A DNA stretch of 64,000 nt. Source: an uncultured Acidobacteriota bacterium (GTDB lineage: Bacteria > Acidobacteriota > Vicinamibacteria > Vicinamibacterales > Fen-181). The notes under the pieces are model-generated. The model was not told where the DNA came from. It searched no databases and saw only the letters and a list, made by a program, of their open reading frames with translations. The stretch lies in the NCBI GenBank assembly GCA_963727765.1, contig CAVSGZ010000007.1:462344-526343 (forward strand), given 5' to 3'. Within the stretch, counting starts at the first letter, position 1. Every line of letters starts with the position of its first letter. Of the stretch, positions 1 to 61,660 are shown piece by piece. Both the position numbers and the translations under genes were made by a program.

Positions 1-1
1 C

Positions 2-4302: not shown

Positions 4303-4307
4303 GTCCC
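4266..4307 (+). repeat. Tandem heptanucleotide array GAATCCC x2, GAATCCT x3, GAGTCCC
   Basis: Read directly: six consecutive 7-nt units spanning the last codons and the stop of the ABC exporter, 12 nt upstream of the yicC ATG. Confidence 0.95.
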
Positions 4308-4318
4308 GTGTGGTGCCT

Positions 4319-5209: not shown

Positions 5210-5846
5210 GCGCGGTCGCTTGTTCATCCTGTCGGCGCCGTCGGGCGCCGGGAAGACCACGGTCGCCCGGCGAGTAGTGGAGACGACCGGCGGCGTCGGA
5301 ATTTCAAGGTCCTACACGTCGCGGCCGGCTCGGGCCGGCGAGCGCGACGGTGTCGACTACAACTTCGTCAGCGTCGATCGCTTCCGCCAGCTTCGCGACG
5401 CGGGGGCGTTTCTCGAGTGGGCGGAGGTCTTCGGCGACTTCTACGGCACCGGGGCCTCCGACACGCAGGCGAGGCTGGCGGCGGGCGACGACCTGGTGCT
5501 GGTCATCGACGTGCAGGGCGCGAGGAAGGTCCGGCAGGCCGGCGTCCCGAGCGTCGGCATCTTCCTGATGCCGCCCTCCTACGCCGTGCTCGAAGAGCGT
5601 CTGCGCGGGCGTGGCCGCGACCCCGAGGCGGCGATCCTCCGCAGGCTCGTGATCGCACGGGAAGAGATCCGGGCGTTCGTCGAGTACGACTACGTGGTCG
5701 TCAACGACGAGATCGAGGCGTGCGCGGACCGCGTGAGGGCGATCCTGCTCGCCGAACGCTCGCGCCGCGCAACCATGGTTGCGGCGGCCGAGGATGTCGT
5801 CTCCACGTTTGCTCCGCCGCCGCAGGGGCGCGGGCCAGGAGCCTGA
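5199..5846 (+). CDS. gmk: Guanylate kinase
   Basis: P-loop SAPSGAGKTT, SRSYTSRPARAGERDGVDYNFV, whole-length Gmk similarity. Confidence 0.92.
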   Translation: MSNRRGRLFILSAPSGAGKTTVARRVVETTGGVGISRSYTSRPARAGERDGVDYNFVSVDRFRQLRDAGAFLEWAEVFGDFYGTGASDTQARLAAGDDLVLVIDVQGARKVRQAGVPSVGIFLMPPSYAVLEERLRGRGRDPEAAILRRLVIAREEIRAFVEYDYVVVNDEIEACADRVRAILLAERSRRATMVAAAEDVVSTFAPPPQGRGPGA

Positions 5847-5856
5847 GGACGCGCGT

Positions 5857-7095
5857 ATGTCGAAGATTGCGCTCGGCGTGACCGGCGGCATCGGGGCGTA
5901 CAAGGCGGTCGAGGTCGCGCGGGGACTGCAGAAGGCCGGCCACGACGTCGTCGTGGTGATGACGAAGGCCGCCACCGAGTTCGTCGGCCCGCTCACCTTC
6001 GAGGCCATCACGCGCCACCGCGTGATCACGGGGCAGTTCGAGCCGGGCGCGAACGCGGACATCGAGCACATCGCGCTCGCCTCGTCGATCGACCTGCTGC
6101 TCGTGGCGCCGGCGACGGCCAACAGCATCGGCAAGTTCGCCGGCGGCATCGCCGACGATTTCCTCGGCTCGCTCTACCTCGCGACACCGGCGCCCGTGCT
6201 GCTGGCGCCGGCCATGAACTCGAACATGTGGGCTCACGAGGCCGTCCAGGGGAACCTCCGGACGCTTCGCGCGCGCGGCGTCAGGATCGTCGAGCCCGGG
6301 GAGGGGTTCCTGGCCTGCGGATGGACTGGGCCCGGGCGGCTGGCTGAGCCGCCCGAGATCGTCGCGGCCGCCGAGGCGATCCTGCGCCCGACGCAGACGC
6401 TGGCGGGCAGAAGCGTGCTGGTCAGCGCCGGACCGACATTCGAGGACATCGACCCCGTCAGGTTCATCGGCAACAGGTCCAGCGGGCGCATGGGATACGC
6501 AGTCGCGGCCGAGGCCGCCCGCAGGGGCGCTCACGTCACATTGGTGTCGGGGCCGACGACGATCCCGGCGCCAGACGGGGTGGAGGTGGTGCGCGTGCGC
6601 ACGGCGATGGAGATGCATGAGGCTGTCGTGAGACTCGTGCCGGGAACCGACATGGTGGTCATGGCGGCGGCCGTCGCCGACTACGCGCCGGTGAGGGCCC
6701 CCGAGAAGATTGCGAAGGAAGGCGATGAACTGGTGCTGCGCATGGCGCGGACGCCGGACATCCTCGCAGAGCTGGGCGCGCGGCGGGCGGCTGGAGAATG
6801 GCCGCGCACGGTGCTGGTCGGCTTCGCCGCCGAGACGAGCGATGTAGTGGCGCGCGCCCGCGACAAGCGGCGCCGCAAGCAGGTGGACCTGATCGTCGTC
6901 AACGACGTGTCGCACATGGACCGCGGGTTCGACGCCGAGTCGAACGCCGTCACGATGATCGCGGCGGACGGCGAGGAAGAGGTCACGCTGCGCCCGAAGG
7001 CGGACGTGGCCAGGGCGATTCTCGACAGGGTCGAGCGGATGCTGCCTGCCGCTGTCGTGAAGCGGCCGCCGGTGCCGCATGCGGACGGAGAGTGA
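5857..7095 (+). CDS. coaBC: Bifunctional phosphopantothenoylcysteine decarboxylase / phosphopantothenate-cysteine ligase
   Basis: [16 protein letters not shown] flavoprotein N-domain, PAMNSNMW, and CoaB domain [25 protein letters not shown] 5857 chosen; 5779 is an over-extension into gmk. Confidence 0.92.
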
Positions 7096-7816
7096 CGTGG
7101 ACCCCCGCGAACAGCTGGCCGAACAGTTGACGTTCCTGATCGAGCTGGGCGTGGACGGCTTCAGCCGCGACCCCGCCTGGCGCGGTTCTGCCCGGGACCA
7201 GCAGATAGCGCAGGGCTTTAGCCCTGCGCCGGGCAGCCCCGAATCCCTCCCCTCCATACGCACGGACCTCGGTGACTGCACGCGCTGCAAGCTGGCGACG
7301 CTCGGCCGGCGGCAGATCGTCTTCGGCGTGGGGAACCCCCGCGCGCGGCTGATGTTCATCGGCGAGGCCCCCGGCCGCGACGAAGACATCCAGGGCATTC
7401 CCTTTGTCGGACGCGCCGGGCAGTTGCTCACGAAGATGATCGAGGCGATCGGCCTCAAGCGGGAGGACGTCTACATCGCCAACGTCATCAAGTGCCGTCC
7501 GCCCGAGAACCGGAACCCCGAGCCCGACGAAGTCGCCTCGTGCGAACCGTTTCTCTTCCGCCAGGTCGAGTCCATCAGCCCGGTGGTGATCGTGGCGCTC
7601 GGGACGTTCGCCGCCCAGGCGCTCCTCAAGTCGCAGGACACGATCTCGAGGCTTCGGGGCCGTGTCTACCGCTACGGCGGCGCTCAACTCGTGCCGACGT
7701 TTCACCCCGCTTACCTCCTGCGAAGCCCGGACAAGAAGCGAGACGCGTGGGAGGACCTCAAGCGAGCCAAGAGCCTGCTCGACGCCGCCGCGGCGGACAC
7801 CAGCCGGCAGGCGTAG
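7079..7816 (+). CDS. Uracil-DNA glycosylase, family 4
   Basis: Motif A GEAPGRDEDIQGIPFVGRAG, CRPPENR, HPAYLLR motif B. The N-terminal extension contains a REP-like palindrome. Confidence 0.88.
   Translation: MRTESDVDPREQLAEQLTFLIELGVDGFSRDPAWRGSARDQQIAQGFSPAPGSPESLPSIRTDLGDCTRCKLATLGRRQIVFGVGNPRARLMFIGEAPGRDEDIQGIPFVGRAGQLLTKMIEAIGLKREDVYIANVIKCRPPENRNPEPDEVASCEPFLFRQVESISPVVIVALGTFAAQALLKSQDTISRLRGRVYRYGGAQLVPTFHPAYLLRSPDKKRDAWEDLKRAKSLLDAAAADTSRQA
7205..7229. repeat. REP-like palindrome (GCGCAGGGC-TTTA-GCCCTGCGC) inside the UDG coding region
   Basis: Perfect 9-bp stem with a 4-nt loop. Shares AGATAGCGCAGGGCTT.AGCCCTGCGC with the intergenic palindrome at 41730..41759. Confidence 0.85.
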
Positions 7817-7817
7817 C

Positions 7818-10317
7818 ATGCACCGGCTCGTTTCGGTCGCCGTGCCGGTTCCCGCTCTCGATGCCCTGACCTATAGAGTCCCCGACGGCCTCTCCATGCC
7901 CGCCGTCGGCGCACGTGTTCTGGTGCCGGTCGGCGCGCGTCGGCTCACCGGGATCGTCACCCGGTCGGGCGAGGCGCGGGCGCAGGGTTCGCGCGAGGTC
8001 GCCCTCAAGGACCTCCTCGACGTCTTCGACGGCGACGCCTTCCTTCCGCCGCCGGTCGTGGCACTGACCGAGTGGGTGGCCGAGTACCTACATCTGCGGC
8101 GTGGGCGACGCCGTGGCCGCCGCGATGCCGCCGTTTGCGTGGGTCGAGAGCGAGTGGCGCGTCCGGGCGACGCCCGAGGGCCGGCAGCGACTGGAGCGCC
8201 AGCATCCGTCGGGGCGATCGACCCTGCGTGAGCGCGTGTTGGCGCTTCTGGCGGACGGCGCGTGGATGACTTTGCGCGGCGTGGCATTCCGGCTCGACCG
8301 CGAGGACTCAAGCCGCAAGGGCCGCGGCCTGCCCGTCAGGGCGGCCATCAGGGCGCTCCAGGCCGACGGGTTGGTGGAGGTCGAGGACGTCCTCGGCGGA
8401 CAGGCCGACGCATCGAAGACCGTCCGTGTGGCTGCCATCACGGACGACGGCGCACAGGCGCTCGCGAGCGGCGAGACGCTCCGTCCGAAGCAGCGGGCCG
8501 CGCTGACCCTGCTCGCCGAGGCGCCTGCGGGCCTGCCCCTGGACCGGCTGCGGGAGTCTGACGTCTCGACCGACGTCGTGCAGCGGCTGGCCGACCGCGC
8601 CTGGGTGTCCATCCGCCGCGAACGATCCGAGCGGGACCCGTTCGAGTCGTCGGCACTGCCGGCCGGGGAGGATGCCGACCCGAACGGCGAGCGCGTGCTC
8701 ACGACGGAGCAGGCAACGGCGTGGGAACGCCTGCGAACGCGCGCATCCGAGCGTCGCTTTGCGCCGGTGCTGCTGCACGGCGTGACCGGAAGCGGAAAGA
8801 CGGAGCTCTATCTCCGGCTGGCCTCGGAAGTGTGCGCGTCGGGCCGCTCGTCCCTGGTGCTCGTTCCCGAGATCGGCTTGACCCCGGCGCTGGCCGGCGC
8901 GTTCCGGGCGCGTTTCGGAGACCGCGTCGCCATCCAGCACAGCGGCCTCTCGGACGGCGAGCGTTACGACCAGTGGCAGCGCATCCGCCGCGGCGCCGTG
9001 GACGTCGTCGTCGGCACGCGGTCCGCCGTGTTCGCCCCGCTCGCCGCGCTGGGCTTGATCGTGGTGGACGAGGAGCACGACGGCTCGTACAAGCAGGAAG
9101 ACGCGCCGCGCTACCACGGACGCGACGTGGCCGTGATGCGCGGCAAGCGCGAGGGAGCGCTCGTGGTGCTCGGGTCGGCCACGCCGTCGCTCGAGAGCTA
9201 CCAGAACGCCGTGGCTGGACGATACGAACTCGTCACGCTGGACCGCCGCGTGCTCGATCGCCCGCTCGCCAGGGTCGAGATCGTCAACATGCGGGACGAG
9301 TTCGCCGAGCGCGGCCCGGAGGTCGTGCTCAGCCGCGCGTTGACCGACGCGATGGCCGCGCGGCTCGAGCGCGGCGAGCAGGCGCTCGTGCTCCTCAACC
9401 GCCGCGGTCTCGCGACCGCCGTCGTCTGCCGGCAGTGCGGCGGCACGGTGACCTGCCCAAACTGCAGCGTGTCGCTGACCGTGCACCAGGGCACGCGGGG
9501 GGTGCTGCACGCCCGGTGCCACTACTGCGACCATTCCGTCGTCGTTCCGCGTGCGTGCCCGACGTGCGCGGCGCCGTACCTGGTGCAGACCGGCTTCGGC
9601 ACCGAGCGCGTGGAGCGCGAAGTCCTGGCCGCTTTTCCCCACGCCCGCGTGGCGCGGATCGACCGCGACACCATTCGTCGCCGCGGCGCGATGGTCGCGC
9701 TGCTCGACCGGTTCGCGCGCCGGGAGATCGACATCCTGATCGGCACGCAGATGATCGCCAAGGGGCACGACTTTCCGTGCGTGACGCTGGTGGGCGTCGT
9801 GTCGGCCGACGTCGGGCTGGGGCTGGCCGACTTCCGCGCATCGGAGCGGACGTTCCAGCTGCTCACGCAGGTCGTCGGGCGGGCGGGCCGTGGAGAGCAG
9901 CCGGGCGAGGCGGTCGTGCAGACGCTGTTCCCCGAGCACTACAGCATCCGGCACGCGCGACGGCAGGACTACCGCGCATTCTTTGAAGAGGAACTGGCGT
10001 TTCGGCGCGCGATGCAGTACCCGCCGCGCCTGGCGCTCACCTGCGGCATCGTGCGGGCCGGCAGCCTCGACGAGGCCATGGCCGACGCGCACGCGGTCGT
10101 GCGCACGCTGCGCGAGGCGGCCAGGGCGGGGCACTTCTGTGTCCTCGGTCCCGCTCCGGCCCCGTTCGTCAAGCTGCGGGGCGAGCATCGCGCCCAGTTC
10201 TTCGTGAAGGGCGTGCAGCGCGCCGCCATGCGTGCGGCGATCCGCCGCGCCCTCGACGCGCGCCCCGAGCTGCGCCGACGCGTCGCCATCGACGTGGACC
10301 CGATGACGGTTCTCTGA
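7818..10317 (+). pseudogene. priA: Primosomal protein N' (PriA helicase) with one apparent +1 frameshift at about 8088 (true pseudogene or assembly indel)
   Basis: The first ~90 codons read in frame 3 from ATG 7818 (MHRLVSVAVPVP..LTEWVAEY). The protein continues in frame 1 from 8089 (YICGVGDAVAAAMPP..). Walker A GVTGSGKT, DEEH box, Zn-binding CRQCGG..CPNC and CHYC..CPTC. The ORF track shows 7662..8231 and 8101..10317 as separate pieces. Confidence 0.85.
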
Positions 10318-13955: not shown

Positions 13956-13975
13956 GGTAGAATGGTCGGACGGGT

Positions 13976-14052
13976 CGGGGCGTAGCGCAGCTTGGTAGCG
14001 CACCTGAATGGGGTTCAGGGGGTCGCTGGTTCGAATCCAGTCGCCCCGACCA
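13976..14052 (+). tRNA. tRNA-Pro (anticodon GGG)
   Basis: Manual cloverleaf: acceptor CGGGGCG/CGCCCCG, D stem GCGC/GCGC, anticodon stem CCTGA/TCAGG with loop ATGGGGT, T arm GCTGG-TTCGAAT-CCAGT, encoded CCA. Confidence 0.9.
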
Positions 14053-14062
14053 CTCTCCTCCT

Positions 14063-50755: not shown

Positions 50756-50832
50756 GCGCCCGTAGCTCAGCAGGATAGAGCATCGGTTTCCTAAACCGGG
50801 GGTCGCGTGTTCGAGTCACGCCGGGCGCACCA
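50756..50832 (+). tRNA. tRNA-Arg (anticodon CCT); its 3' 45 nt form attL of the integrated element
   Basis: Acceptor GCGCCCG/CGGGCGC, D stem GCTC/GAGC, anticodon stem TCGGT/ACCGG with loop TTCCTAA, T arm GCGTG-TTCGAGT-CACGC, CCA encoded. Confidence 0.9.
50788..50832 (+). repeat. attL: 45-bp direct repeat (3' part of tRNA-Arg)
   Basis: TTCCTAAACCGGGGGTCGCGTGTTCGAGTCACGCCGGGCGCACCA is identical to 59725..59769. About 24 further nt are 18/24 similar. Confidence 0.9.
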
Positions 50833-50873
50833 CTTATCATCAATATAGACAGGCAGATACAGAGACGGCCGGA

Positions 50874-51143
50874 TCAAGGCGATCCGGCCGTTCGTGTCTG
50901 GTGGTGATTTAGTGGTGCAGCGTGGAACGGGCCGCCGGACATGCGCCGGGCGCGGCGCGCGATCGCGTCGGGCTCGAGGCCCGCGAGTTCCGCCCACACC
51001 CCGCCACCGCCGTCCAGGAACGTCCTGGCGCCTCGCCTCGTCGTCTCGGGCAGGGAGGGGTCGGCCGCGTCCTTCACGGCCCTGGCGAGCACCGCGGCAG
51101 CTAGATTGCGAACCTGGTCAGCGGACGCACCAGCGTCGCTCAT
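50874..51143 (-). CDS. Hypothetical element protein (~89 aa)
   Basis: MSDAGASADQVRNLAAAVLARAVKDA.. within track ORF 50874..51266. Last gene before attL. Confidence 0.4.
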   Translation of the reverse strand: MSDAGASADQVRNLAAAVLARAVKDAADPSLPETTRRGARTFLDGGGGVWAELAGLEPDAIARRARRMSGGPFHAAPLNHHQTRTAGSP

Positions 51144-51477
51144 CGTTGTCGCGTCCTTCGCGCCGGCGCGCCCGGCAGGGCCTGCAGCGACGCGGCCACT
51201 TTGCGGTGTCGAAGCGCTTGGCGAGTTTGGCGAGCTCGGCGACAGTGACAACGAAGGCCGCGCCACAGACGACGCAGATCCGCTGCAGTTCGCCGTCGGC
51301 CTCGCCGTCTTGCGCGGGCGGGAGGCGTTGTCCCGCCATCGCGAGGCACTGCGCTTCCGAGAGCGCCAGCCCCACCGCCAGGCCGGCCCGCCCGGCCGCG
51401 ATCAGCCGCGCCCGGCGCGCGACGTCTTCATCGGGCTCGTTCGCTTTGGCGATGAATCGCCGCAACCTGCCGAGCAT
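51118..51477 (-). CDS. Hypothetical element protein with a Cys-pair (zinc-ribbon-like) C-terminus
   Basis: MLGRLRRFIAKANEPDEDV..CVVCGAAF..RRCRPCRARR within track ORF 51118..51531. Confidence 0.45.
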   Translation of the reverse strand: MLGRLRRFIAKANEPDEDVARRARLIAAGRAGLAVGLALSEAQCLAMAGQRLPPAQDGEADGELQRICVVCGAAFVVTVAELAKLAKRFDTAKWPRRCRPCRARRREGRDNDERRWCVR

Positions 51478-51547
51478 CGAGCACCTCTTGGGTGTCTGAG
51501 AGTCGGGGCGGCCCGGCCATCCGGCTAGCACCGCCCCGTGGTGAACG

Positions 51548-51978
51548 CTACGCCGTGCCCTCGGCCGGCGTGACGTGCAGCTCGGCGATCTGCGTGCCGC
51601 TGACGCTGTTCGCGTCGAGGCAGCTCACCGCCGCGCCGTACCGGACCGCCCAGATCGACTCGCACGTGCTTGAGCTCCCGCGCTTCACGACGACGCGCAG
51701 GTACCGCAAGGTCGGCCGGGCGATTTCGCAGAATCGAGATCCTCGTCGGACGCGCCCGACACGACCTTGCTGTCCGCCAGGTCGGCCATCGTGCCGCCGG
51801 CCGGGTCGATGTCCTGCTGGACCACCAGGTAGTTGTTTGCGTTCGCGACGCTGAGCGACGTCACGAAGACGACGCCCTGGTAGCCGGCCATGTCCAGGAT
51901 CGCCGAGGTGACGTCGGCGGTCCCGGCGGTCGTGTGGTCGGCGAGCTTGGTGAAGACGGCGTGCTGTAAGAGGTTCAT
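51548..51978 (-). pseudogene. Head-module hypothetical protein downstream of the capsid gene, with an apparent frameshift near 51700-51730
   Basis: ORF 51685..51978 (MNLLQHAVFTKLADH..) ends abruptly. A second frame continues without stops (..IARPTLRYLRVVVKRGSSSTCESIWAVRYGA..AEGTA*) to the stop at 51548. Confidence 0.5.
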
Positions 51979-51987
51979 GTTCGCCCC

Positions 51988-53164
51988 CTACCCGGCCGCC
52001 AGGCCCGCGATGATCTCCACCGCGCCCGCGTTGAGGATGCCCAGACCCGCGAAGCGCGCCGTCGCGCGCACGAGCACGCTGTCGTAGTCGCTCTTCGAGT
52101 ACGGGTCGAGGAACAGGTTGATCTCGAGGCGCCGACCGACCACGAGCTGCGCCGGGTCGACCACCGCCAGCCAGGACTTCGTCGCGCCGCCGACGTCCTC
52201 GGTGATGGAGATCTGCGAGCTCGTGACGATCGGCAGCCCGAAGAGGCTCGGCGCCGGCGAGTTCGCCAGGTTCGGCACGAGGTAGTAATTCGCGTCGCCG
52301 CCCTTCGCCTTGATCAACTGCCCGGCCGTGCGCGGATGGCAGACAATCACCTTCGGGTCGGCGTTGTTCGTCTTGCAGCGCGTGATCGCGTCCAGCACGT
52401 TGTCGGGCGTGACCACCGCGCCGCTGCCGCTGCCGAGTGTCGTCACGGTCGGCCCGGTCAGCCGCCGCAGGCCCGTGAGCTCGGCACCGGCGCCGGTGCC
52501 CTCGAGCAGCTCGTAATCGAGCTTGGCCGACATCGTCTTGAGCAGGTCCATCTCGACGAACTGCCGCAGGTTCCCGCTGGCGTCCGCCATCACCTCGTTC
52601 GAGGCCTGGACCAACGCCCCCAGCTTCTTGGCCGTGAGCGTGAGCTGCGCCAGCGTGAGGTCACTGGCCGAGAATCTGCGCGCCCTCACCGACCATAGCG
52701 GCCGTCGCGCTCGCCGAGAGCCTCGGCATGAGCATCGTCGTGCTCGCCATCGTCACCGACTGGAGGCCCGGGAGCCTCAGCATGACCGTCGCCGCGCGGA
52801 GCCTGTCGTAGATTTGCTGCGACATCTCCGGGTTCACGTCGAAGCCGCCCTGGGCGTCGACGCCGAGCGAGAGCGCGCGGGACTCCTGCAGCGTCGGCAG
52901 CCATCGCTTCGACGGCCCACCGGCGTCCTCGCCGGGCTCCATGAACCGCCGCGACTCGGGGATCGTCTGGCGAGCCTCGGCGTCCGCCCGCTCGTCGCGC
53001 TCGAGTTCCTCGCCGATGGTCTTGATCTCCTCGCGCATCTCCACGATCTTGTCGGAGTCGTCCTTGGACAGCGCCTTGCCGTCCTTCGTGCGCTCGTCGA
53101 GGAACGCCCGGGCCGCCGCGATGAGCGTGGCGCGCTTCGCCTTCAACTGTTCCGTCGTCAACAT
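51988..53164 (-). pseudogene. HK97-fold major capsid protein, split by a 1-nt frame break near 52680
   Basis: N-part (track ORF 52661..53194) has a coiled-coil delta-like region and ..AAMVGEGAQI. C-part (51988..52689) reads SASDLTLAQLTLTAKKLGALVQASNEV..LDYELLEGTG... ATG 53164 is preceded by AGGGGG. Confidence 0.75.
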
Positions 53165-53469
53165 GGGGTACCCCCTGTCGGCTTTCGCCGACACGTATGC
53201 GTTGTCTTGAAGGATGCCCGGATCGGAAGGCGCGCCGTCTCGGCGCTCGCTGGCGCTCTCGACGCGTAACCGACCGCGGAGCCGCTGTGACCGAGGCCGC
53301 CGGTGACGTGCAACTTCCGCCGTCGGTGGCGTGCGCTCGCGCCGTCGATGGGGCCTCTGGGGCCCTCCACGACGTGTGAGAAGAAAGCCGGCCGGGGCCT
53401 CGAGGGCCTCTCACGCGCGGGCGCGCGTCGGCGAGCTCGAAACGATCATAGCACATCCACGCGGCCACC

Positions 53470-53757
53470 TCAGTGGGTCCGCTCGCCCGCGGGGCGATCG
53501 AGGATGTCGAGCCCGAACATCGGCGTGGCAGGATCGATGCCGATGATCGCCACCGGCTCGATCTGGTGCGTCTCGGGGTCGGTCACACCGACCGAGAGCA
53601 TCCGCGTCTCATCGTCGAAGACGATCCGGCATGGACGTGTTTTGACGAGCGCCAAGTCGGCCGGCGAGAGCGCCACTTCGCTCAGCTCGTGAAGAGAGAT
53701 CAGCATCTTCGCCACGAGTGCCTTCTGTCGGGTCTGCCGTTCTTCAGTCGTCATCAT
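53470..53757 (-). CDS. Hypothetical element protein (95 aa)
   Basis: Track ORF 53470..53757. Overlaps the upstream gene's stop. Coding-like composition. Confidence 0.5.
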   Translation of the reverse strand: MMTTEERQTRQKALVAKMLISLHELSEVALSPADLALVKTRPCRIVFDDETRMLSVGVTDPETHQIEPVAIIGIDPATPMFGLDILDRPAGERTH

Positions 53758-54469
53758 CGTCTCCTGGCGCGTTGGCGTCCTGCTCGCGGTTGTCCACCGG
53801 CTTCTCGCTGGAACCTCCTGTGGGCCCCCACAGGAAGGTGTCGGGTTGCACCACCTCCGGCGCGAAGTCCGCGGCCGTCAGGCGCTGCGCCTCGCCTGGG
53901 AGCAGCAGGTTGTGCCGGCGAAGGTAGTCGGCCTGGGATTCGTAGACCGGCGGGTCGTCCGGGTCGATCGGCTGCCCCGCGAAGGGCCCAAGGCATCGCC
54001 CGATCCCGCGGGCGTAGATCAAGCGCCCCTCCGGGCTGGTGAAGATTCGGATGTCATCCGCCGTGATGAATTTGATCGGGCGGCCGGCCGTGAACTCGGG
54101 ACGGCCGGCCAGCACGTCATGCCGCGCGGTGCCGACGCCGCCGAGCCGGCGCCGCGGCTCGGCCAGCGCCTCGAGTTCAGCGTTGCCCTCGGCGCGACAC
54201 CAGGCCGGGAGCTCCGCGCGCGCCCACCGTGGCGCGTCGAATCGCCACCAGCAAAACGGTCGCGTGCCGGGTCGCTCGCACATCCACCGCGCGAGCAGCC
54301 CCTCGCGTGCCGCCGCCCAATCGGCCGTCACCCCCGCGTCGTCGGGGCCCGTCTTGCCGAAGACTTCCCAGAAGGCCCGGCCGTCATCTGGGAACTCGCC
54401 GAAGAGCATGTAGTTTTTGAGACCCTCTGCGGTCGCCGAGTCGACCGATTGCCGATTTCGTCGAAGCAT
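53744..54469 (-). CDS. Hypothetical element protein (241 aa)
   Basis: Track ORF directly downstream of TerS. Acidic C-terminus. No recognisable TerL, portal or protease motifs. Confidence 0.55.
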   Translation of the reverse strand: MLRRNRQSVDSATAEGLKNYMLFGEFPDDGRAFWEVFGKTGPDDAGVTADWAAAREGLLARWMCERPGTRPFCWWRFDAPRWARAELPAWCRAEGNAELEALAEPRRRLGGVGTARHDVLAGRPEFTAGRPIKFITADDIRIFTSPEGRLIYARGIGRCLGPFAGQPIDPDDPPVYESQADYLRRHNLLLPGEAQRLTAADFAPEVVQPDTFLWGPTGGSSEKPVDNREQDANAPGDDDDD

Positions 54470-54470
54470 G

Positions 54471-54917
54471 TCACCCCTCCGGTTCGATCTCGAGTTCCCT
54501 CAGGACGCTGATTAGTTCGTTCTCGATCTGTCGCAAGTGTCGGACCAGCGGATTGAGATACTTCCGGCCACCGCCGCTGTAAAGCACCGCGCCGCCTTTC
54601 GCCAGGTCGCGGCGGGTGACCGCCGCGTCATCGATGAGCGTGGCGCCGAGCCGGAGTAGCGCCGTCGCGGAAGCGTCCACAGCCGCGTTTTGCCGGCCGA
54701 GCTCGAGCCACTTGTCCGCGAGAAATTGGCGGCCCGGGTCGTCGAGCCCCTCGAGCAGTTTCGGAGGAATCGGGCCCAGGACAGCCGGCGCCGCGGACGC
54801 CGCCGCCCGGGAGGCCGCCAGGCGAGCGCCATGCCGGTCGGCCCTGAATGTTCCCCGGGCCAAATGCAGCGCGATTGGAAGGGGTTTTCGGCCGGATCGC
54901 CCTGGCTTCCCACTCAC
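54471..54917 (-). CDS. Phage terminase small subunit (P27 family-like)
   Basis: SGKPGRSGRKPLPIALHLARGTFRADRHG N-terminus typical of P27-type TerS. GTG 54917 is preceded by AGGAGG. The track ORF extends to 55001. Confidence 0.7.
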   Translation of the reverse strand: MSGKPGRSGRKPLPIALHLARGTFRADRHGARLAASRAAASAAPAVLGPIPPKLLEGLDDPGRQFLADKWLELGRQNAAVDASATALLRLGATLIDDAAVTRRDLAKGGAVLYSGGGRKYLNPLVRHLRQIENELISVLRELEIEPEG

Positions 54918-55211
54918 ATGTCCTCCTAATATTTGCCTTTTCCGTTTTGTGCCATTCTGCGAGCGCGAGGGCCTGTCCGGTTTTCCGGCCCGACGCGCCA
55001 AAGATTTCGACCCCCTATCCGCTCGAACGTCCCCACCCGCCGTCCTCGCGGTTCGTCTTGCGGCTGTGGCGCCCGTGCGCCTCTGCCACGAGCCGGCGCG
55101 CCGACGCGGGGAGCCGGTTCGTAACGGGGCCGGTGACGGCCCTGTTGCCTCCCGGTTTCCCCAAAGTGAGACCGACTAATACCCCCCGAACAGGTGGTCC
55201 ACGGTGACGGG

Positions 55212-55329
55212 TGTGACAGGTTTGGAGTCAATTCTGGTTTTTCTGTACTTCGTCTCTCGTAAGGAAAAAACATGAAACTACCCCTCAACCTGTCACCGAC
55301 CGCATAAACATTGGTCCAAACCTGTCACC
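55212..55329. promoter_or_regulatory. Three copies of AACCTGTCAC(C) (one inverted) in the AT-richer non-coding gap between the primase and TerS genes
   Basis: Direct copies at 55287..55297 and 55319..55329. Inverted 10/11 copy at 55212..55222. The region 54918..55324 has no convincing ORF. Confidence 0.6.
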
Positions 55330-56709
55330 AATCCCGGCGCGCGAGGCCAAGAAACGCCCTCCGCAGCCGTCCGGCCCCTCGTTGCAGCCGGTCGTTGGCC
55401 TTCCGCCCGAACAACGTCGCCGAGAACCGTTCCCGCACGCCATACCCCTGAGCGTTCGCCCACTTCTCGTAGTGGTCGAACAGATCCTTGAAGGCCACCA
55501 CGGCATCCGGGTCGGGCTCGGTCGCCTCATCCAGGAACCGGCCGAAGTGATCCGAGTCTTCGCGGTAGGCCGACGTGGCCTCGGTGACGATGGGCGGTGT
55601 GGACAGGCCCCGCTCTTGCCACGCCAGGCAGCCACGAACGAGCCACGCGAGAATACCGGGCGCCTCCTCGTGCAGGGTGGCCCCCAGTGTCGGGATCGGG
55701 CTGGAAGGTCCGCACAAAGGGAATGAGCCGCACTCGGCGCCAGAACGCAAACGAGTCGTCACGCACGACGGGCTTGTGATTGAACGCCAGCCAGATCTTG
55801 CCGACCGGCTGGAAGGTGAAGTACTCGCCGTGGAGGAACCGAGCCGTGCAGGCATCGCCTCCGGTCAGGCTCTTGATCCGGGCCTCGTTCAACCGCGTCC
55901 CATCGTTCGTCTCGCTGGCGAGGATGAACCGCCGGCCGGCGAGGGCCGCCAGGTCGTTCGGGATCGAGGCGCGCTGGTTTAGCTCGACCACGCTGAACGG
56001 CATGTCGTACGCGTAGTCGCCGACGGCGTTCGCAATCGCGCGGAGGCTCGTGCTCTTCCCGTTGGCGCCGCCCGCGTAGCCGCCGAAGAGCGCCTGCTCC
56101 GTGGTGACGCCGGTGATCGAGTAGCCGAAGGCCAACCACACAAACTCGGCCAGGGCGGGATCGGGGAACCACTCGCGAATCGCCTGCTCCCACCGCGGAC
56201 ACCGCGCCTCGGGGTCGAAACCCACGGCGGTCTGCATCGTGATCCGATCCTCGGGGCGGCCATCGCGGAGGTCGCCGGTTCGCAGATCCACCACACCGGT
56301 CGGCGTCCCGAGCAGCAAGGGGTCGGCGTCCACCGGTCGCCGTCGTCGGCGACCGGGCACAGACACTTCACGAGATTCAGCATCGCCTGCAGCTTGGCCA
56401 GGCGGTCGAAACCCATCGACCACTTGATCGTGTCGTCGCGCCGGAAGGCGTCGAGAGGTCCACAGCCTCGTGCTGCCAGCGCCGCACGGCCGCTCGCGCC
56501 AGGCGGATGACTTCGCCGCTCGTGTCGGGCGCCCAGTGATGATCGCGGAAGATCACCCACTGGTTCCGCGGGTGAATGAACTTCAGATCGTGCGCGTGGT
56601 CCGCCGCGAACCGCTCGGCGCCGCCGGCCTCGGTGAGTCGGTGCTCGAGCGGGACGCGCGACACCTGATCGCCGAAGTTCGGCTGCGGTTGGCGGACTCG
56701 CCGACTCAT
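55325..56709 (-). pseudogene. Phage/plasmid primase (P4/D5 family, helicase-type P-loop domain) with three apparent frame breaks
   Basis: Colinear pieces in four frames-segments: MSRRVRQPQPNFGD..TEAGGAERFAADHAHDLKF.., then ..AFRRDDTIKWSMGFDRLAKLQAML.., then ..VDADPLLLGTPTGVVDL..GGYAGGANGKST..RLIPFVRTF.., then ..LGATLHEEAPGILAWLVRGCLAWQERGL... Breaks near 56450, 56335 and 55700. Confidence 0.75.
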
Positions 56710-57022
56710 GCGACACGCTCGCAGTCGGCGCGCATCGTTCGCGCTGGTGCTCGCGTCGGTCCAGTTCGTCCCGCCAGTCCTCGAAGATGTCGAGTCGGGC
56801 ATGGATGAGCATCGCGTCCCAGTCGCCGGGCCGCCCAGGCTCGTCAGCCAGGCGCCGCCAGTTCCGCGCGATCGCCGTCGCCGCGTAGGTCGTCAACCAA
56901 GCCAGGTAGTCGAGCCGGCACGCGCCGAGCAGCTCCAGCGCCTCGATCGTGCGCCGGGCGTCGGCCAGCTCGCGCACCTTCTCAGCCAGGACGCGCGCCA
57001 GGGGATTGTCGAGAGCGGTCAT
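56707..57022 (-). CDS. Hypothetical element protein (~100 aa); 3' end uncertain
   Basis: MTALDNPLARVLAEKVRELADARRTIEAL... The reading frame has no stop before the primase ATG. A TGA overlapping that ATG (ATGA) exists only in another frame, so one more frame break is possible. Confidence 0.4.
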
Positions 57023-57222
57023 CGCGTCGCCTCGATGATTGCCGCGGCCAGGTCGCGCGCCACGTCCTCGCGGACGGCCAGCGCCGCGGTGTGGCTGGCC
57101 AGGTGCTCGAGCAGTACCTTGCGCTCGTCGTCGACCACGACGTCACTGTCGAGCAAGCTGTCGCGGAGGATTCGCACACGATCGAGAACGTCGGTGCGTG
57201 CTACACTTTGTCGGTCGGTCAC
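57019..57222 (-). CDS. Hypothetical element protein (67 aa)
   Basis: Track ORF. Its stop overlaps the next start (ATGA). Confidence 0.45.
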   Translation of the reverse strand: MTDRQSVARTDVLDRVRILRDSLLDSDVVVDDERKVLLEHLASHTAALAVREDVARDLAAAIIEATR

Positions 57223-57289
57223 AAGCTCTCCCTTGTGGCGACTGCGCCCGGTTCGAGTGCCTGCTCGCGCCGGGCGTTCGCGCGTACAG

Positions 57290-57526
57290 CTACGCTGCGT
57301 CCCTGGTCCGGTGGACGTGGGCGTTGAGCCAGGCGTCGAGGTCGGCGAGCCGGTAGCCGATGGCGCGGGTGGAGAGCTGCACCCAAGCGGGTCCGCGATC
57401 GTGCATCCGGGCGATGCGGAGGAACGATCGCGAGCGGGAGAGATACCGCGCCGCGTCTTTCTCCGTGATGACGTTGTGCAGTTCGGGACGGATGTTGGCG
57501 GGTTGTGGCGGCGCTGCGTGCTTCAT
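57290..57526 (-). CDS. AlpA/excisionase-type HTH DNA-binding protein
   Basis: MKHAAPP..VITEKDAARYLSRSRSFLRIARMHDRGPAWVQLSTRAIGYRLADLDAWL matches the AlpA/Xis pattern. Confidence 0.65.
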   Translation of the reverse strand: MKHAAPPQPANIRPELHNVITEKDAARYLSRSRSFLRIARMHDRGPAWVQLSTRAIGYRLADLDAWLNAHVHRTRDAA

Positions 57527-57566
57527 GCAGAGAGCATGAACGCGAGCACGGGACCGTGTTACTTCG

Positions 57567-58358
57567 CTATCGGCCCTTCGGCAGACCCTCGATATTGCGG
57601 TAGAGAGACAGGAACCTGACCACCCTCGCCACGTCCCTGAACAGGTCAACGGGCACGCCGCAGCCCGCGGCCTCATACGCAATCGCCAACGTCTTGGCGA
57701 AAATGCCGTCTGCGCTCTTCATAATGGGCAGCCTCGCGAGGGTGAAGCGTTCGCCGAGATCAAGTGCGATGGCTTCCCGATCCTCGGCCGTTTTGCGCCC
57801 CGGTTTGCCGAAACTCTGATGCCGGTAGGTGGTCAGCCGTTTTTCGATGCGGTCGAGACTCGCTTGAAGGGCCTCTATCTCTTGCCGCCGCTCCTCCAGC
57901 CACGTGGTCTGCCGGCTCAAGTAATCACGCCATGCGCGCGTGCGCTGTTCGCTGAAGGGATCGTCTCTGGCGTTCGCCTTCTCCAGGGCCACGCGCTGGT
58001 CGCGTAGCCAGTCCTCCTCGTCGAACGCACCAGCAAAGCTGGCAAGCATGCAGTCAGCGCCATCGAGGGCCTCGAGTGCGGCCCGGCACGATTTAGTAGC
58101 CGCGCGCAGGCGCCGGATCTTGCCTGCGAGGGCTTGATACATTTGCGGAAGCCTCAGTCCGTTTCGTTCCTGCCGCGCGTGGATGACGACGAGTATCAGA
58201 GCCGGGACGAACTTCGGATAGTCGCCGCCAAGGATACCCATGAGGGCCCTACGCTGGCCGGCATCGAAGACAATTGAGATGTCGGTGTCTGCGAGGATTC
58301 GCCTGTCCGCCTCGTCGTCATCCACGCGAGCACGTTCCAGTTCGCCTGTTGCAGCCAT
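57567..58358 (-). CDS. Hypothetical element protein (263 aa) between the integrase and Xis genes
   Basis: ATG 58358 overlaps the integrase stop (TAATG). MAATGELERARVDDDEADRRILADT... Predicted helical. No family recognised. Confidence 0.55.
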   Translation of the reverse strand: MAATGELERARVDDDEADRRILADTDISIVFDAGQRRALMGILGGDYPKFVPALILVVIHARQERNGLRLPQMYQALAGKIRRLRAATKSCRAALEALDGADCMLASFAGAFDEEDWLRDQRVALEKANARDDPFSEQRTRAWRDYLSRQTTWLEERRQEIEALQASLDRIEKRLTTYRHQSFGKPGRKTAEDREAIALDLGERFTLARLPIMKSADGIFAKTLAIAYEAAGCGVPVDLFRDVARVVRFLSLYRNIEGLPKGR

Positions 58359-59557
58359 TACGCACCCCCCAGCTTCGCCACGGCCGCCGCCAAGTTCTCC
58401 GGGGCCAAGTGGGCGTACCGCAACGTCAGCGCGAAGTCGGAATGGCCGAGCAGCGCGCGGACGCTGGCGAGATCCACGCCGGCCTGGACGAGCTTCGAGG
58501 CGAAGTGGTGTCGGAGGTCGTGCAGTCGAAACTTCGTAATCCCCGCGTTGTCGAGCAACGTGGACCACGCCGTTTTCAGCGTCGTCATCTTCGCGCCGGC
58601 CTCGTCGCTGGGGAACACGCGGTCTGCGACCGCGCCGGTCTGCCAGGCTTTCAAGGCGTCGTGCGCCTCGGTGTTGAGCGGGATATGCCGCGTGCGTCCG
58701 CTCTTGGCGCCTTCGCCGCGCACCGTCAGGACACGGCCCACGAGATCCACGTCCTGCCAGGTCAGGTTGAAGAGTTCCCCGCGCCGACAGCCGGTGTTCA
58801 TCGCCAGCAGGACGAACGGGGTCAGGTGGTCGGTGTAGGTGCCGAAGTCGGGGAGCAGGAAATAGCCGCGTTGACGTCGCCAGTCGTTCGCGCTGGCCCG
58901 CGCCGCCCGTCGAGCGTTGTCGCGCGCCACGAGGGCGAGGCGCAGTCGGATCTCTTCGTCCACGTTCAGAAACCGCACCGTCGCCGAGCGGTCCTCTTGG
59001 GACTGCTTCACGCGCCGCAGGGGATGATCGGGCAGTAGGTTCCACGCGACCGCTTTCGAGAGCGCCGCCCGCAGCGCCGCCAGATCGCGATTGGCCGTCG
59101 CCTTCGTGACGTCCTTCAGTCGGGCCGTGCGCCACCGCTCCACGGCGAAGCCGGTGATCTCGGTGAGCGGCTTGGCGCCGAACGGATCATCGAATTGTGC
59201 GTGCAGGCGCGCGAGCAGGGAAGGGGCGTGCTTCAGGTTCGCCCGCGCCCACGGCTCGTAATGCTTCTCGAGGAAGTCGGCGAAGGTTGCGGCCGTCTTC
59301 TTCGCCTTCTCAGCGATCGGGTCCGCGCCGTCGGCGACGTGGCCGAAAACCCCGCGCGCCAACTCGCGCGCCTTCTCCGGCTTCAGGTCGGCCACGCGGC
59401 CGAGCGTGTACCACTTCCCGCGGCCCAGGCTGACCAGATACGAGTGCTTGCCGCTCGGTCTGACCCGAAGCACCAGCCGTGGTTGTTTGTCGTCCCAGAC
59501 GTCGTAGGAGCCCTTGGCGAGGCCCTTCACGAGGTCCACCGTGATGGTCGCTTTCAT
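58358..59557 (-). CDS. int: Tyrosine-type site-specific integrase
   Basis: N-terminal DUF4102-like arm domain (LRVRPSGKHSYLVSLGRGKW), catalytic R..HDLRH..LGHSDFALTLRYAH. ATG 59557 is preceded by GGAGGG. Confidence 0.9.
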   Translation of the reverse strand: MKATITVDLVKGLAKGSYDVWDDKQPRLVLRVRPSGKHSYLVSLGRGKWYTLGRVADLKPEKARELARGVFGHVADGADPIAEKAKKTAATFADFLEKHYEPWARANLKHAPSLLARLHAQFDDPFGAKPLTEITGFAVERWRTARLKDVTKATANRDLAALRAALSKAVAWNLLPDHPLRRVKQSQEDRSATVRFLNVDEEIRLRLALVARDNARRAARASANDWRRQRGYFLLPDFGTYTDHLTPFVLLAMNTGCRRGELFNLTWQDVDLVGRVLTVRGEGAKSGRTRHIPLNTEAHDALKAWQTGAVADRVFPSDEAGAKMTTLKTAWSTLLDNAGITKFRLHDLRHHFASKLVQAGVDLASVRALLGHSDFALTLRYAHLAPENLAAAVAKLGGA

Positions 59558-59724
59558 GCGCCCTCCAAATCCTGGTGGTGCAATGGTGGTGCATGAGGCG
59601 TGAACTGACTGCACCACCAGAAAACCACGCCGCACCGATAACGCATTGTAAGCGCTTGAGACGACAGGCGCAAGCGGTATTTGTCGAATCTGCGTGGTTT
59701 CGACGTGTTTACGGTCGGAAGGCG

Positions 59725-59769
59725 TTCCTAAACCGGGGGTCGCGTGTTCGAGTCACGCCGGGCGCACCA
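59725..59769 (+). repeat. attR: 45-bp direct repeat (orphan 3' tRNA-Arg fragment)
   Basis: Identical to 50788..50832. No 5' tRNA half precedes it. Confidence 0.9.
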
Positions 59770-59906
59770 TTTCTAATCAATAAACACAGGCATGAATCGC
59801 AACGGCCCGGCAGAACAGCGCCAGGCCCGTTCTTTGACAGCGGACGAACGAGATTCCGGCTTGACACCTCGAAAAGCCCTCCGGCATGTTCGGGAGGTCT
59901 GGCTCC

Positions 59907-60311
59907 ATGATTCAGAACAAGATCGTAGCCCGCTACCAGGATGGACGCGTTCTCAAGGGCCAGACCGGCGACTTCCTGCCGACCAAACCGGTGTTTCATC
60001 TGACGTTGCACGATGCGCCTCAAGGTGAGAAGCCGCTCGAGGTGCAGATCGCCGAGCTCAAGGCCGTCTTCTTCGTGAAGGACTTCGAGGGTAATCGCGA
60101 ACGCAGGGATACCCAGGAATTCGGAGCCGGAAAGGCCGTCGTCGGCCGCAGGATTCGGGTGGTCTTCCAGGATGACGAAACGCTCGTCGGCACGACTCAG
60201 GGATACGATCCCTCCCGGCCCGGCTTCTTCGTCGTCCCCGCGGACTCGGACTCCAACAACGACCGCTGCTTCGTGGTCGCCCGCGCGACCAAAGAGGTGG
60301 CGTTCATTTGA
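59907..60311 (+). CDS. Hypothetical conserved protein (134 aa)
   Basis: MIQNKIVARYQDGRVLKGQTGDF.. ATG 59907 is preceded by GGGAGG. Confidence 0.6.
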   Translation: MIQNKIVARYQDGRVLKGQTGDFLPTKPVFHLTLHDAPQGEKPLEVQIAELKAVFFVKDFEGNRERRDTQEFGAGKAVVGRRIRVVFQDDETLVGTTQGYDPSRPGFFVVPADSDSNNDRCFVVARATKEVAFI

Positions 60312-60490
60312 GCTGTCCTGGCGTGACGGCGGTGCCCATGCGACCGCGAAGCGCTTCAGAAATTCTTCAGTTTCTCCGCCCCGGCCGGAATGGTAGAGTC
60401 CGGCGGCATGGCGCGTCGGTCCCAAAGCACCTGCGTAAGATACGACTCACGGCGGCTACCGAGACGCCACGTTCACTTGCGAGGAAGCAT

Positions 60491-61549
60491 ATGAAGAAAT
60501 GCCTGATCATCGCGTTGACTGCCTTCGTCGTTGCCGCTCTCGGCGCGCCCCGCGTCGGATCGGCCCAGACCTTCAAGGTCGATAAGTACGACATCAAGGG
60601 CGACGGCGGCACGGACTACGTGGCCGTCGAAGCCGCCACCGGGCGCGTTTTCGTCTCGCGCGCCACCCACGTGATGGTCGTCGAAGGCGCCACGGGCAAG
60701 GTGCTCGGCGACATCCCGAACACGCCGGGCGTGCACGGCGCCGGCCTCGTCACCAAGCACAACCACGGCTTCACCACCAACGGCGGCGACCAGACGGTCA
60801 CCATGTTCGACTTGAAGACGCTGGCGGTGGTCAAGCAGATCAAGGTCGGTCCCGGACTCGACGGCATCATGTACGACGCGCCGGACGACCTGATCATCCT
60901 CACCAACCACAGCCGGCCGATCGGCACGCTCACCGCGATCGATCCGAAGACCGGTGACATTGCTGCAACGGTGGAACTCGAGGACAACTCGCCGGAGGGC
61001 GCCGCCGCGGACGGCAAGGGCCACATCTTCGTGAACAACGAGGGCAAGAGCACGATCCAGGTGATCGACGTGAAAACCTGGAAGGCAACGGCGTCGTGGC
61101 CGCTGGCGCCGTGCGAGGGGCCGACTGGCATCGCGTACGACAAGGCGACCAACCGGATCTTCTCCGGCTGCAGCAACACCTCCGTCGTCCTGGATGCCAG
61201 CACCGGCAAGGTCGTGGCGTCCATCAAGAACGGGACTCGCGTCGACGCGCTGGGGTGGGATCCGGCCAGGAAGCTGATCTACATCCCGAACGGCGGGGAG
61301 GGAAACGTCACCGTCGTCCACCAGGATGCGGCCGACAAGTACTCGGTAGTGACCACGGTCGAGACGTTCCGCGGCGCCAAGACGATCTGCGTGGATCCCA
61401 AGACTCACAACGTGTACCTGTTCCAACCCGAGCGCGGGCCGGCTCCACCCCCGCCGCCGGGCACGCTGCCGCCGGCTGCCGGACAGCGCGGGCGCGGCCC
61501 GCAGGGACCGATCCTGGCGGCCTGGTTCATCGTGATCAAGCAGCAGTGA
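60491..61549 (+). CDS. Secreted YncE/YVTN-type beta-propeller protein
   Basis: Signal peptide MKKCLIIALTAFVVAALGAP. Repeated propeller blades (GVHGAGL, GLDGIMYD, PEGAAADGKG, PTGIAYD). Pro/Gly-rich tail. Confidence 0.75.
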   Translation: MKKCLIIALTAFVVAALGAPRVGSAQTFKVDKYDIKGDGGTDYVAVEAATGRVFVSRATHVMVVEGATGKVLGDIPNTPGVHGAGLVTKHNHGFTTNGGDQTVTMFDLKTLAVVKQIKVGPGLDGIMYDAPDDLIILTNHSRPIGTLTAIDPKTGDIAATVELEDNSPEGAAADGKGHIFVNNEGKSTIQVIDVKTWKATASWPLAPCEGPTGIAYDKATNRIFSGCSNTSVVLDASTGKVVASIKNGTRVDALGWDPARKLIYIPNGGEGNVTVVHQDAADKYSVVTTVETFRGAKTICVDPKTHNVYLFQPERGPAPPPPPGTLPPAAGQRGRGPQGPILAAWFIVIKQQ

Positions 61550-61660
61550 AGCAGCCCTCCCGCTGACTTTCTGGCGTCCGGCGCGGTCTGAGGTACCATT
61601 AGGCTGGAGGTTCATCCAGTGATCGCTGTCCTGCTGCAGAGTCAGACGGGTTTCGTCAGG

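Follow-up and report, generated by a model that had tools for sequence, protein, structure and literature searches.

What kind of mobile element occupies the 3' end of a tRNA-Arg(CCT) gene in an uncultured soil bacterium of the Vicinamibacterales (Acidobacteriota; Fen-181), and does it depend on a helper phage? The locus lies in a 64,000-nt stretch of DNA (the window; GenBank assembly GCA_963727765.1, contig CAVSGZ010000007.1, positions 462,344 to 526,343), for which an earlier interpretation made from the letters and their open reading frames (ORFs), hereafter the sequence-only reading, had proposed a helper-dependent phage satellite. Our analysis indicates that this 8.9-kb element is probably a satellite resembling the phage-inducible chromosomal islands (PICIs). 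Its late block consists of a candidate small terminase subunit (TerS), a protein that we call X, a small ORF (orf95) and the gene of an HK97-fold major capsid protein, and X proves to be homologous to the N-terminal extension domain found in certain large terminases (TerL).

A discrete element inserted in tRNA-Arg(CCT)

The sequence-only reading had set the limits of the element by a direct repeat, exact over 45 nt, of the 3' end of the tRNA, and our comparison bore this out: the second copy (59725-59769) lies 8,937 bp downstream of the first (50788-50832), and a search of the window for a 35-nt core, with up to three mismatches allowed, found these two sites and no others, against none in 100 shuffles. 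The resemblance that it had seen past the repeat is likewise real, amounting to 86% identity over 83 nt. It had also described a hairpin after each copy; the one following the left attachment site (attL) is strong (-31.7 kcal/mol; z = -6.4 relative to shuffled sequence) and probably replaces the tRNA terminator, whereas the one following the right site (attR) is indistinguishable from shuffled sequence (z = -0.8). An Rfam scan returned the tRNA as its sole match. Together with the integrase and AlpA/Xis genes, the exact att repeats mark a site-specific insertion, with a G+C content of 67.5% as compared to 67.8% in the host.

On both sides the flanks are ordinary intact chromosomal genes, and we therefore regard the insertion as a discrete integrative element rather than part of a larger prophage. 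The S46 peptidase adjoining the tRNA is 84-87% identical to Vicinamibacterales proteins, and the genes to the right of attR encode DUF6982, beta-propeller, Sel1 and TPR proteins, none of phage type. The sequence-only reading had proposed a search for the empty site, and one exists in a related Vicinamibacterales genome (L054; GCA_936411765.1), where the core is present once in the same tRNA-Arg and the right-flank genes for Sel1 and TPR proteins stand about 100 nt beyond it. The right end of the element recurs in a Logan contig from run ERR11594402 (L044), 100% identical across 59754-57320 (2,435 bp).

The tRNA-Arg(CCT) of another related member of the Vicinamibacterales (L052; ENA ERZ25039489 contig_61570, 1-8340) carries a different island, with an AlpA 90% identical to that of the window, a primase in several ORFs and a TerS-like N-terminus, and without a match to X or to an HK97 capsid; a 14-aa stretch of the tRNA-proximal gene orf89 is 93% identical beside that tRNA. 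The site is a hotspot for related modular elements. The 1.8 kb to the right of attR in the window (59770-61590), which hold the DUF6982 and beta-propeller genes at a G+C content of 58-64%, are also absent from the L054 site, and the first 38 nt past attR (59770-59807) resemble the element's own end; this region may be left over from an earlier insertion at that tRNA, or it may simply reflect a difference in gene content.

The late block pairs a capsid gene with a candidate small terminase

Reading frames were picked by third-position G+C in this G+C-rich genome, and the ORFs of the element were searched against Pfam, PHROGs, NCBIfam and PADLOC. Coding signal and family matches agreed with the gene order given in the sequence-only reading, every gene with coding signal between the repeats lying on the minus strand (Table 1). 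Its call of an HK97 major capsid gene holds for the joined product, but an additional T at 52673/4 divides the gene as it stands. When joined, its 391-aa product matches PF05065 (2e-42, profile positions 1-267 of 280 without a break) and TIGR01554 (2e-49), has no encapsulin family match in Pfam or NCBIfam, and is less than 30% identical to any deposited phage capsid.

The TerS candidate opens with a GTG start codon behind an AGGAGG ribosome-binding site. The evidence for its designation as P27-type is weak and comes from its neighbourhood and from a profile: related loci have a short gene directly before X, Terminase_4 (PF05119) is matched by 21 of the 27 such neighbouring upstream ORFs that were scanned, and the candidate itself scores 18.7 bits against a hidden Markov model of the same-position genes, but it has no Pfam or PHROG match of its own. 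Most related loci also have an ORF of 60-200 aa at the position of orf95. HMMER detected no homologue of orf95 among these same-position genes; in a pairwise comparison, it aligned end to end with the 85-aa counterpart in an Acidobacteria element (L006), at 26% identity and with a weak E-value of 6e-5. The spacer that separates orf95 from the capsid gene has no Rfam match and no obvious repeat.

Searches of the ORFs against the four databases yielded no portal, prohead protease, complete TerL, TerL ATPase or nuclease, tail, holin or lysin/lysis gene, and PADLOC found no defence system. The absence of portal, protease, TerL and tail features had been claimed beforehand, and none was found, except that the ORF at 53744-54469, which encodes X, is homologous to the N-terminal domain of TerL.

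X is homologous to the N-terminal extension of TerL

X has no model in Pfam, PHROGs, NCBIfam or PADLOC and no ATPase or nuclease domain, and its 53 word-indexed relatives are all without names. A profile search gathered 3,395 cluster representatives at 50% clustering, the best 150 of which are all 164-265 aa long. An AlphaFold (AF2) model built on a 42-sequence alignment was mostly helical, with a predicted local distance difference test (pLDDT) score of 87.8; Foldseek found no match for it in PDB or BFVD, and the X profile found none among PDB sequences. With no family match, and no fold match in PDB or BFVD, X was ruled out as a portal, a protease or a TerL motor.

In two phage-type contigs (L049 and L041), the X sequence forms the first 140-160 residues of a TerL of 740 or 784 aa, where it precedes the TerL_ATPase and TerL_nuclease domains of Pfam; the gene after the fused TerL encodes a portal in both contigs, and a capsid gene is present as well in L049. 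Using hhalign, we aligned X to residues 4-139 and 4-160 of two TerLs with probabilities of 99.4% and 98.3%, and because of these matches to fused TerLs we consider X a stand-alone version of the TerL N-terminal extension. X is absent from 50,697 GenBank phage genomes, and of 2.9 million IMG/VR contigs 7 contain it, most of them short. We found no counterpart of X described for PICIs in the literature. In a 4.3-kb IMG/VR contig (L051, 1852-3241), a portal gene comes immediately after a short ORF that has the X motif, and no TerL separates the two.

X-bearing elements recur in several phyla

We assembled the loci related to X from 37 genome loci (by means of an 11-sequence X alignment) and the 7 IMG/VR contigs. 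The module of TerS, X, small ORF and capsid gene recurs in similar small integrative elements of several phyla, and what lies downstream of X is most often a small ORF followed by an HK97 capsid gene. Matches to Phage_capsid were obtained for 10 of the 41 downstream ORFs of at least 300 aa. Among the matches listed (the 25 most frequent of 27 families), there is only one portal and no TerL. Some relatives have the capsid gene fused to an S78 protease, and some distant ones carry S78.

The sequence-only reading had advised a search for intact copies, and complete related elements do exist. One is a Thermodesulfobacteriota element (L042) of 9.6 kb between 52-nt repeats of tRNA-His, in which all genes are intact: an integrase, an AAA_25 replicase, an SF2 helicase, Terminase_4, X, an ORF of 66 aa and a capsid gene. 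A 9.9-kb IMG/VR contig (L048) has a D5_N helicase, TerS, X, capsid gene and integrase, and the Acidobacteria element L006, which ends at a tRNA-Pro, has X, an orf95-like gene, a capsid gene, and orf89-like and zinc-finger genes. Replication modules are exchanged freely among X-bearing elements. Compared in translation, the 3' part of the L006 tRNA-Pro(GGG) (3437-3712) shows about 90% identity with the tRNA-Pro(GGG) of the window (13974-14060), which is unoccupied; a second island at this window tRNA was considered and rejected, its neighbouring genes being ordinary.

In place of the capsid gene, or besides it, some relatives have tape-measure or Mu-type baseplate-hub genes. A tail tape-measure gene follows X where the capsid gene would be in L046 (2536-5635), which also has an MmeI-type restriction-modification gene, and in L020 (7384-11037). 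Domains of the Mu GpP/gp44 baseplate-hub type were matched in 4 of the 41 large ORFs downstream of X; one candidate baseplate-hub ORF is that of L003 (13266-15518), whose 751-aa product has no precomputed Pfam match. Some relatives may thus bring tail-tip parts.

Early genes and an origin-like gap

At the integrase end, the start codon of orf263 overlaps the stop codon of the integrase gene. The orf263 product has no significant match in Pfam, PHROGs, NCBIfam, PADLOC or PDB sequences, and both genes are 100% conserved in L044 and in a 9,014-bp contig (L043; ENA ERZ25039480 contig_106959) that corresponds exactly to the sequence between the repeats. This second contig is a mosaic: its identity is 100% across the integrase and orf263 but 80% across the helicase and origin-like region, and it is noisy elsewhere; similar ERZ accession numbers and contig naming suggest that it comes from the same assembly series. 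We rejected it as a circular form of the element because it ends at the repeat edges without a copy of the core, as at a break in an assembly graph. The AlpA/Xis-type protein reached an E-value of 0.0096 with PF05930, which falls short of that model's cut-off. The frame of orf107 (56700-57022 region) meets no stop until 55979, and so extends, out of frame, well into the region of the helicase; either another indel has removed its genuine stop, or an overlap with the start of the helicase is its natural state. Towards the tRNA, the C-terminal part of orf89 is 54% identical to the same-position gene of L006, and the L006 gene in the position of orf119 matches PF13451 at E = 1.5e-9. Exact-protein look-ups returned nothing for AlpA, orf67 and the post-capsid ORF, and L043 alone for orf89.

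Table 1. Features of the element and of its insertion site, in window coordinates
Feature	Position	Strand	Evidence
tRNA-Arg(CCT), complete	50756..50832	+	ARAGORN; Rfam tRNA 65.9 bits
attL core, the 3' 45 nt of the tRNA	50788..50832	+	repeat comparison
Strong hairpin just 3' of the tRNA, element-derived	50864..50893	+	fold of 50833-50900
orf89, tRNA-proximal end	50874..51143	-	no family match
orf119, treble-clef zinc finger (zf_Tbcl-like)	51118..51477	-	PF13451 E = 8e-4
Post-capsid gene (PHROG 5707), frame change near 51725	51548..51978	-	phrog_5707 residues 3-114, E = 3e-4, joined product
HK97-fold major capsid protein with N-terminal coiled-coil (delta-like) region	51988..53164	-	PF05065; TIGR01554
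G+C-rich 305-nt spacer, no convincing ORF	53165..53469		frame analysis
orf95, between X and capsid gene	53470..53757	-	no family match
X, homologue of TerL N-terminal extension domain, 241 aa	53744..54469	-	hhalign
Small terminase candidate, divergent P27/Terminase_4 type	54471..54917	-	profile of same-position genes, 18.7 bits
Non-coding gap, proposed origin and/or late promoter and packaging site	54918..55324		GTGACAGGTT repeats
D5_N + DUF5906 replicative helicase ('pri-rep'), frameshifted	55325..56709	-	PF08706 7e-24; PF19263
orf107, 3' end uncertain	56760..57022	-	no family matches (Pfam, PHROGs, NCBIfam)
orf67	57019..57222	-	no family matches (Pfam, PHROGs, PADLOC)
AlpA/Xis-type helix-turn-helix, excisionase or regulator	57290..57526	-	phrog_66 1.7e-6
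orf263, integrase-proximal accessory slot	57567..58358	-	no family match
Tyrosine integrase with arm-binding domain, intact, 399 aa	58358..59557	-	PF00589 2.6e-29; PF13356 2.6e-8
attR core, exact copy of the tRNA 3' end	59725..59769	+	repeat comparison

What the sequence-only reading had called a P4/D5-type primase is instead a D5_N and DUF5906 helicase, in which Pfam recognises no primase domain and which lies in several frame pieces; joined, it aligns over 99-100% with intact homologues of 460-470 aa. The non-coding gap of about 400 bp that had been noted is real, measures 407 nt and begins directly after the helicase stop codon. Around an A+T-rich patch within it are three copies of GTGACAGGTT, the only ones in the 64 kb and all within 116 nt, arranged as two direct repeats 32 nt apart (55287-55296 and 55319-55328, both minus strand) and one inverted (55213-55222, plus strand). 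The gap of L043, which carries a 122-nt insertion, has the same repeat layout with every copy reading GTGACGGGT, and its helicase allele is 17-20% diverged. The differences in that helicase are biased to third codon positions (78 of 110 in the largest piece), which points to an alternative allele that is functional.

Co-variation between the repeats and the helicase allele is what a matched pair of initiator and origin would be expected to show. Origins of the Staphylococcus aureus pathogenicity islands (SaPIs) have short repeats on both sides of an A+T-rich segment, near the helicase gene. The region in the window is like them in lying directly downstream of the helicase and in having repeats that flank an A+T-rich segment, whereas the repeat sequence and the helicase family are not the same. 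The gap could also contain the late promoter or packaging site.

Comparison with described satellites

The SatelliteFinder model of a PICI comprises an integrase, a regulator, a primase-replicase, a gene for capsid morphogenesis and terS; it excludes genes for tail, holin, portal and connectors (PMC10085698). Compared by description, the element largely fits. It has the integrase, an AlpA-type gene where the model places alpA, merR or stl-type regulators, and the D5_N and DUF5906 gene in the place of the primase-replicase, frameshifted three times; Pfam, PHROGs and NCBIfam detected no tail, holin, portal or head-tail connector/attachment gene. The weak points are TerS, a candidate judged against the same-position profile, and the capsid component, here a full HK97 capsid protein judged by its Pfam and NCBIfam matches. 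The element shares with PICIs a size of about 9-10 kb, att repeats and co-oriented int, alpA/xis and pri-rep genes, to which a candidate terS and a capsid-related gene are added, and differs from them in that its capsid component is the major capsid protein itself rather than a capsid-remodelling factor.

Capsid-forming PICIs (cf-PICIs) such as EcCIEDL933 are about 15 kb long, have genes for a protease, a portal, head-tail connectors, HNH and a whole TerL, and tails are all that they steal. The element has in common with them its own HK97-type capsid, its own candidate TerS and a presumed need for a helper to supply other parts. Unlike them, it has no portal, prohead protease, connector, HNH or complete TerL match in Pfam, PHROGs or NCBIfam, and only the N-terminal domain of a TerL is represented. 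The same databases gave no match to the psu-delta-sid operon, epsilon or alpha primase of P4-like satellites. Marine virion-encapsidated integrative mobile elements (VEIMEs) encode no capsid gene, and Streptomyces satellites carry a full head module.

Other elements come closer. Mycobacterial phiRv1 and phiRv2 and other elements with an integrase and a capsid gene have already been treated as candidate PICIs (PMC10085698, PMC10654092), the mycobacterial candidates being defined by having an integrase together with a gene for a major capsid protein (PMC10654092). In the element of the window, the slot from terS to the capsid gene is taken up by X and orf95, with no Peptidase_S78/U35 match in Pfam, PHROGs or NCBIfam. 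This is a difference from phiRv1 and phiRv2, in which that slot presumably holds a prohead protease. Temperate 'twilight' mini HK97 genomes of about 9 kb, without portal or tail genes, were described in a 2025 preprint (Aguilar et al.; 10.1101/2025.06.18.659913). The gene set had been judged unlike that of described families; this is so for cf-PICIs, but the PICI model is largely matched, phiRv1/phiRv2-type candidates and the mini HK97 genomes are already on record, and the design is therefore less unprecedented than had been thought. What is new here is the Acidobacteriota host phylum, the capsid-only head module and X.

Frame breaks and alternative explanations

Several genes of the element are out of frame. 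Alignment by tblastn with two intact, 64%-identical homologues (P0054 and P0056) splits the helicase into four pieces in three frames (56703-56458, 56440-56345, 56336-55683 and 55720-55334), with 1-nt frameshifts near 56447, 56338 and 55694. With the extra T in the capsid gene, and with the frame switch of the post-capsid ORF near 51725, which is probably a frameshift and may otherwise reflect two overlapping ORFs, this makes four or five 1-nt breaks, so that the copy is either recently inactivated or imperfectly assembled. It is a substantial possibility, if one short of an even chance, that the element is a defunct relic: a satellite-type element inactivated by the helicase and capsid frameshifts and now a mere passenger, in which at most the integrase, orf263 and AlpA are still active. 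Ten flanking host genes have normal domain matches (the largest, to Peptidase_S46, at positions 1-697 of 698) and the rest of the window is tiled by long ORFs, up to 1,581 aa, which speaks for a relic, as do the post-capsid frame layout common to the window and L043 and the perfect conservation of the integrase and orf263. Yet the extra T is missing from an independent Logan contig of run ERR11594402 (L001; 99.9% identity across 2,295 bp), whose capsid gene reads through, and L044, of the same run, shows no difference from the window over its 2,435 bp. The breaks are all single-base indels and two at least are contractions of short G runs, which is also typical of consensus errors in long reads, and those of the helicase fall exactly where a second, divergent allele circulates in related samples, so that mixed alleles could have corrupted the consensus. 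L043 was set aside as evidence on decay: except in the helicase, its mismatches are not biased by codon position, and frameshifts run through the whole contig, which points to sequencing noise.

Two further explanations would remove the helper or the discreteness of the element. An autonomous mini HK97 entity, temperate, tailless and portal-less, that packages or compartmentalises its genome without a helper would agree with the 8.9-kb size, the integrase, replication and capsid genes, the lack of portal and tail genes, and the fact that no helper was found. We consider it improbable: the dominant clade of Aguilar et al. is of human-gut origin, with capsid proteins like encapsulins and without terminase or packaging genes (10.1101/2025.06.18.659913), whereas the capsid protein of the window matches phage HK97 models, and a TerS and a TerL-derived domain beside a capsid gene make sense only with a motor and a portal, both of which the element lacks. 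Still less credible, to the point of being very improbable, is a remnant of a larger prophage with its remainder beyond an alternative att copy. The 38 nt past attR and the region of lower G+C missing from the empty L054 site would suit such a remnant; against it, the window holds no third att copy, the genes right of attR are not phage genes, other genomes and contigs hold complete elements that equal it in size and gene set, and L043 spans exactly the inter-repeat sequence, in agreement with the sequence-only reading, which had named such a remnant as what would overturn it. Nor is an autonomous tailed prophage apparent, TerL, portal, tail and lysis genes being undetected by Pfam, PHROGs and NCBIfam in the att-bounded unit of 8.9 kb and the flanks being chromosomal.

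A proposed helper-dependent cycle

For a PICI-like satellite, the gene content suggests the following cycle. Upon infection by a helper phage, or upon induction of one, the element would excise and replicate from its own origin, and its TerS would recognise a site on the element. X, being a free-standing version of the TerL domain presumed to dock TerS, might serve as an adaptor that couples the element's TerS to the TerL motor of the helper, or as a decoy that titrates the helper's TerS away from the motor, by a logic analogous to that of SaPI Ppi and PICI Rpp. The capsid protein of the element would then form small heads on the helper portal, using the protease, connectors and tail of the helper. 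The element has no motor, portal, protease, connector, tail or lysis genes, and these must therefore come from a helper, on which we infer it to depend.

Several considerations weigh against a satellite of this kind. The helper-dependent satellite of the sequence-only reading gains from the discreteness of the element and the recurrence of its compact design, but no helper phage was identified, helper dependence is deduced from the missing genes, and excision, induction and packaging are proposals drawn from gene content. Two genes of this copy, for the helicase and the capsid protein, and probably a third are out of frame, so that it may be dead. The assignment of TerS is weak, and the homology of X to the TerL N-terminal domain is no proof of TerS binding, so its docking role is presumed. 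A capsid protein that comes without portal or protease must fit those of the helper, for which we found no experimental precedent in the literature. Finally, orf263, orf107, orf67, orf95, the post-capsid ORF or orf89 could be an unrecognisable structural protein.

We think it possible, if rather doubtful, that X-bearing elements constitute a large multi-phylum satellite lineage, in which a free TerL N-terminal domain and its cognate TerS capture or blockade the helper motor and heads are made from the element's own capsid protein on a borrowed portal; we did not find such a lineage described in the literature searched. If true, satellite and helper would here share the work in a way that is not seen in P4, PICIs, cf-PICIs or PICI-like elements (PLEs). 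The gene content suggests an intermediate strategy: classical PICIs remodel the capsid of the helper and cf-PICIs bring a whole head, whereas here only a shell protein and the DNA-recognition end of the terminase are brought.

The satellites described come mainly from Proteobacteria and Firmicutes, with a few from Actinobacteria. The element and its relatives would extend them to soil Acidobacteriota, Gemmatimonadota, Thermodesulfobacteriota, Planctomycetota and others, and, if the copy of the window is truly frameshifted, it would provide a small example of satellite decay in place. With thousands of members and a confidently predicted fold that has no match, X offers a testable handle on how TerS and TerL communicate in P27-type packaging.

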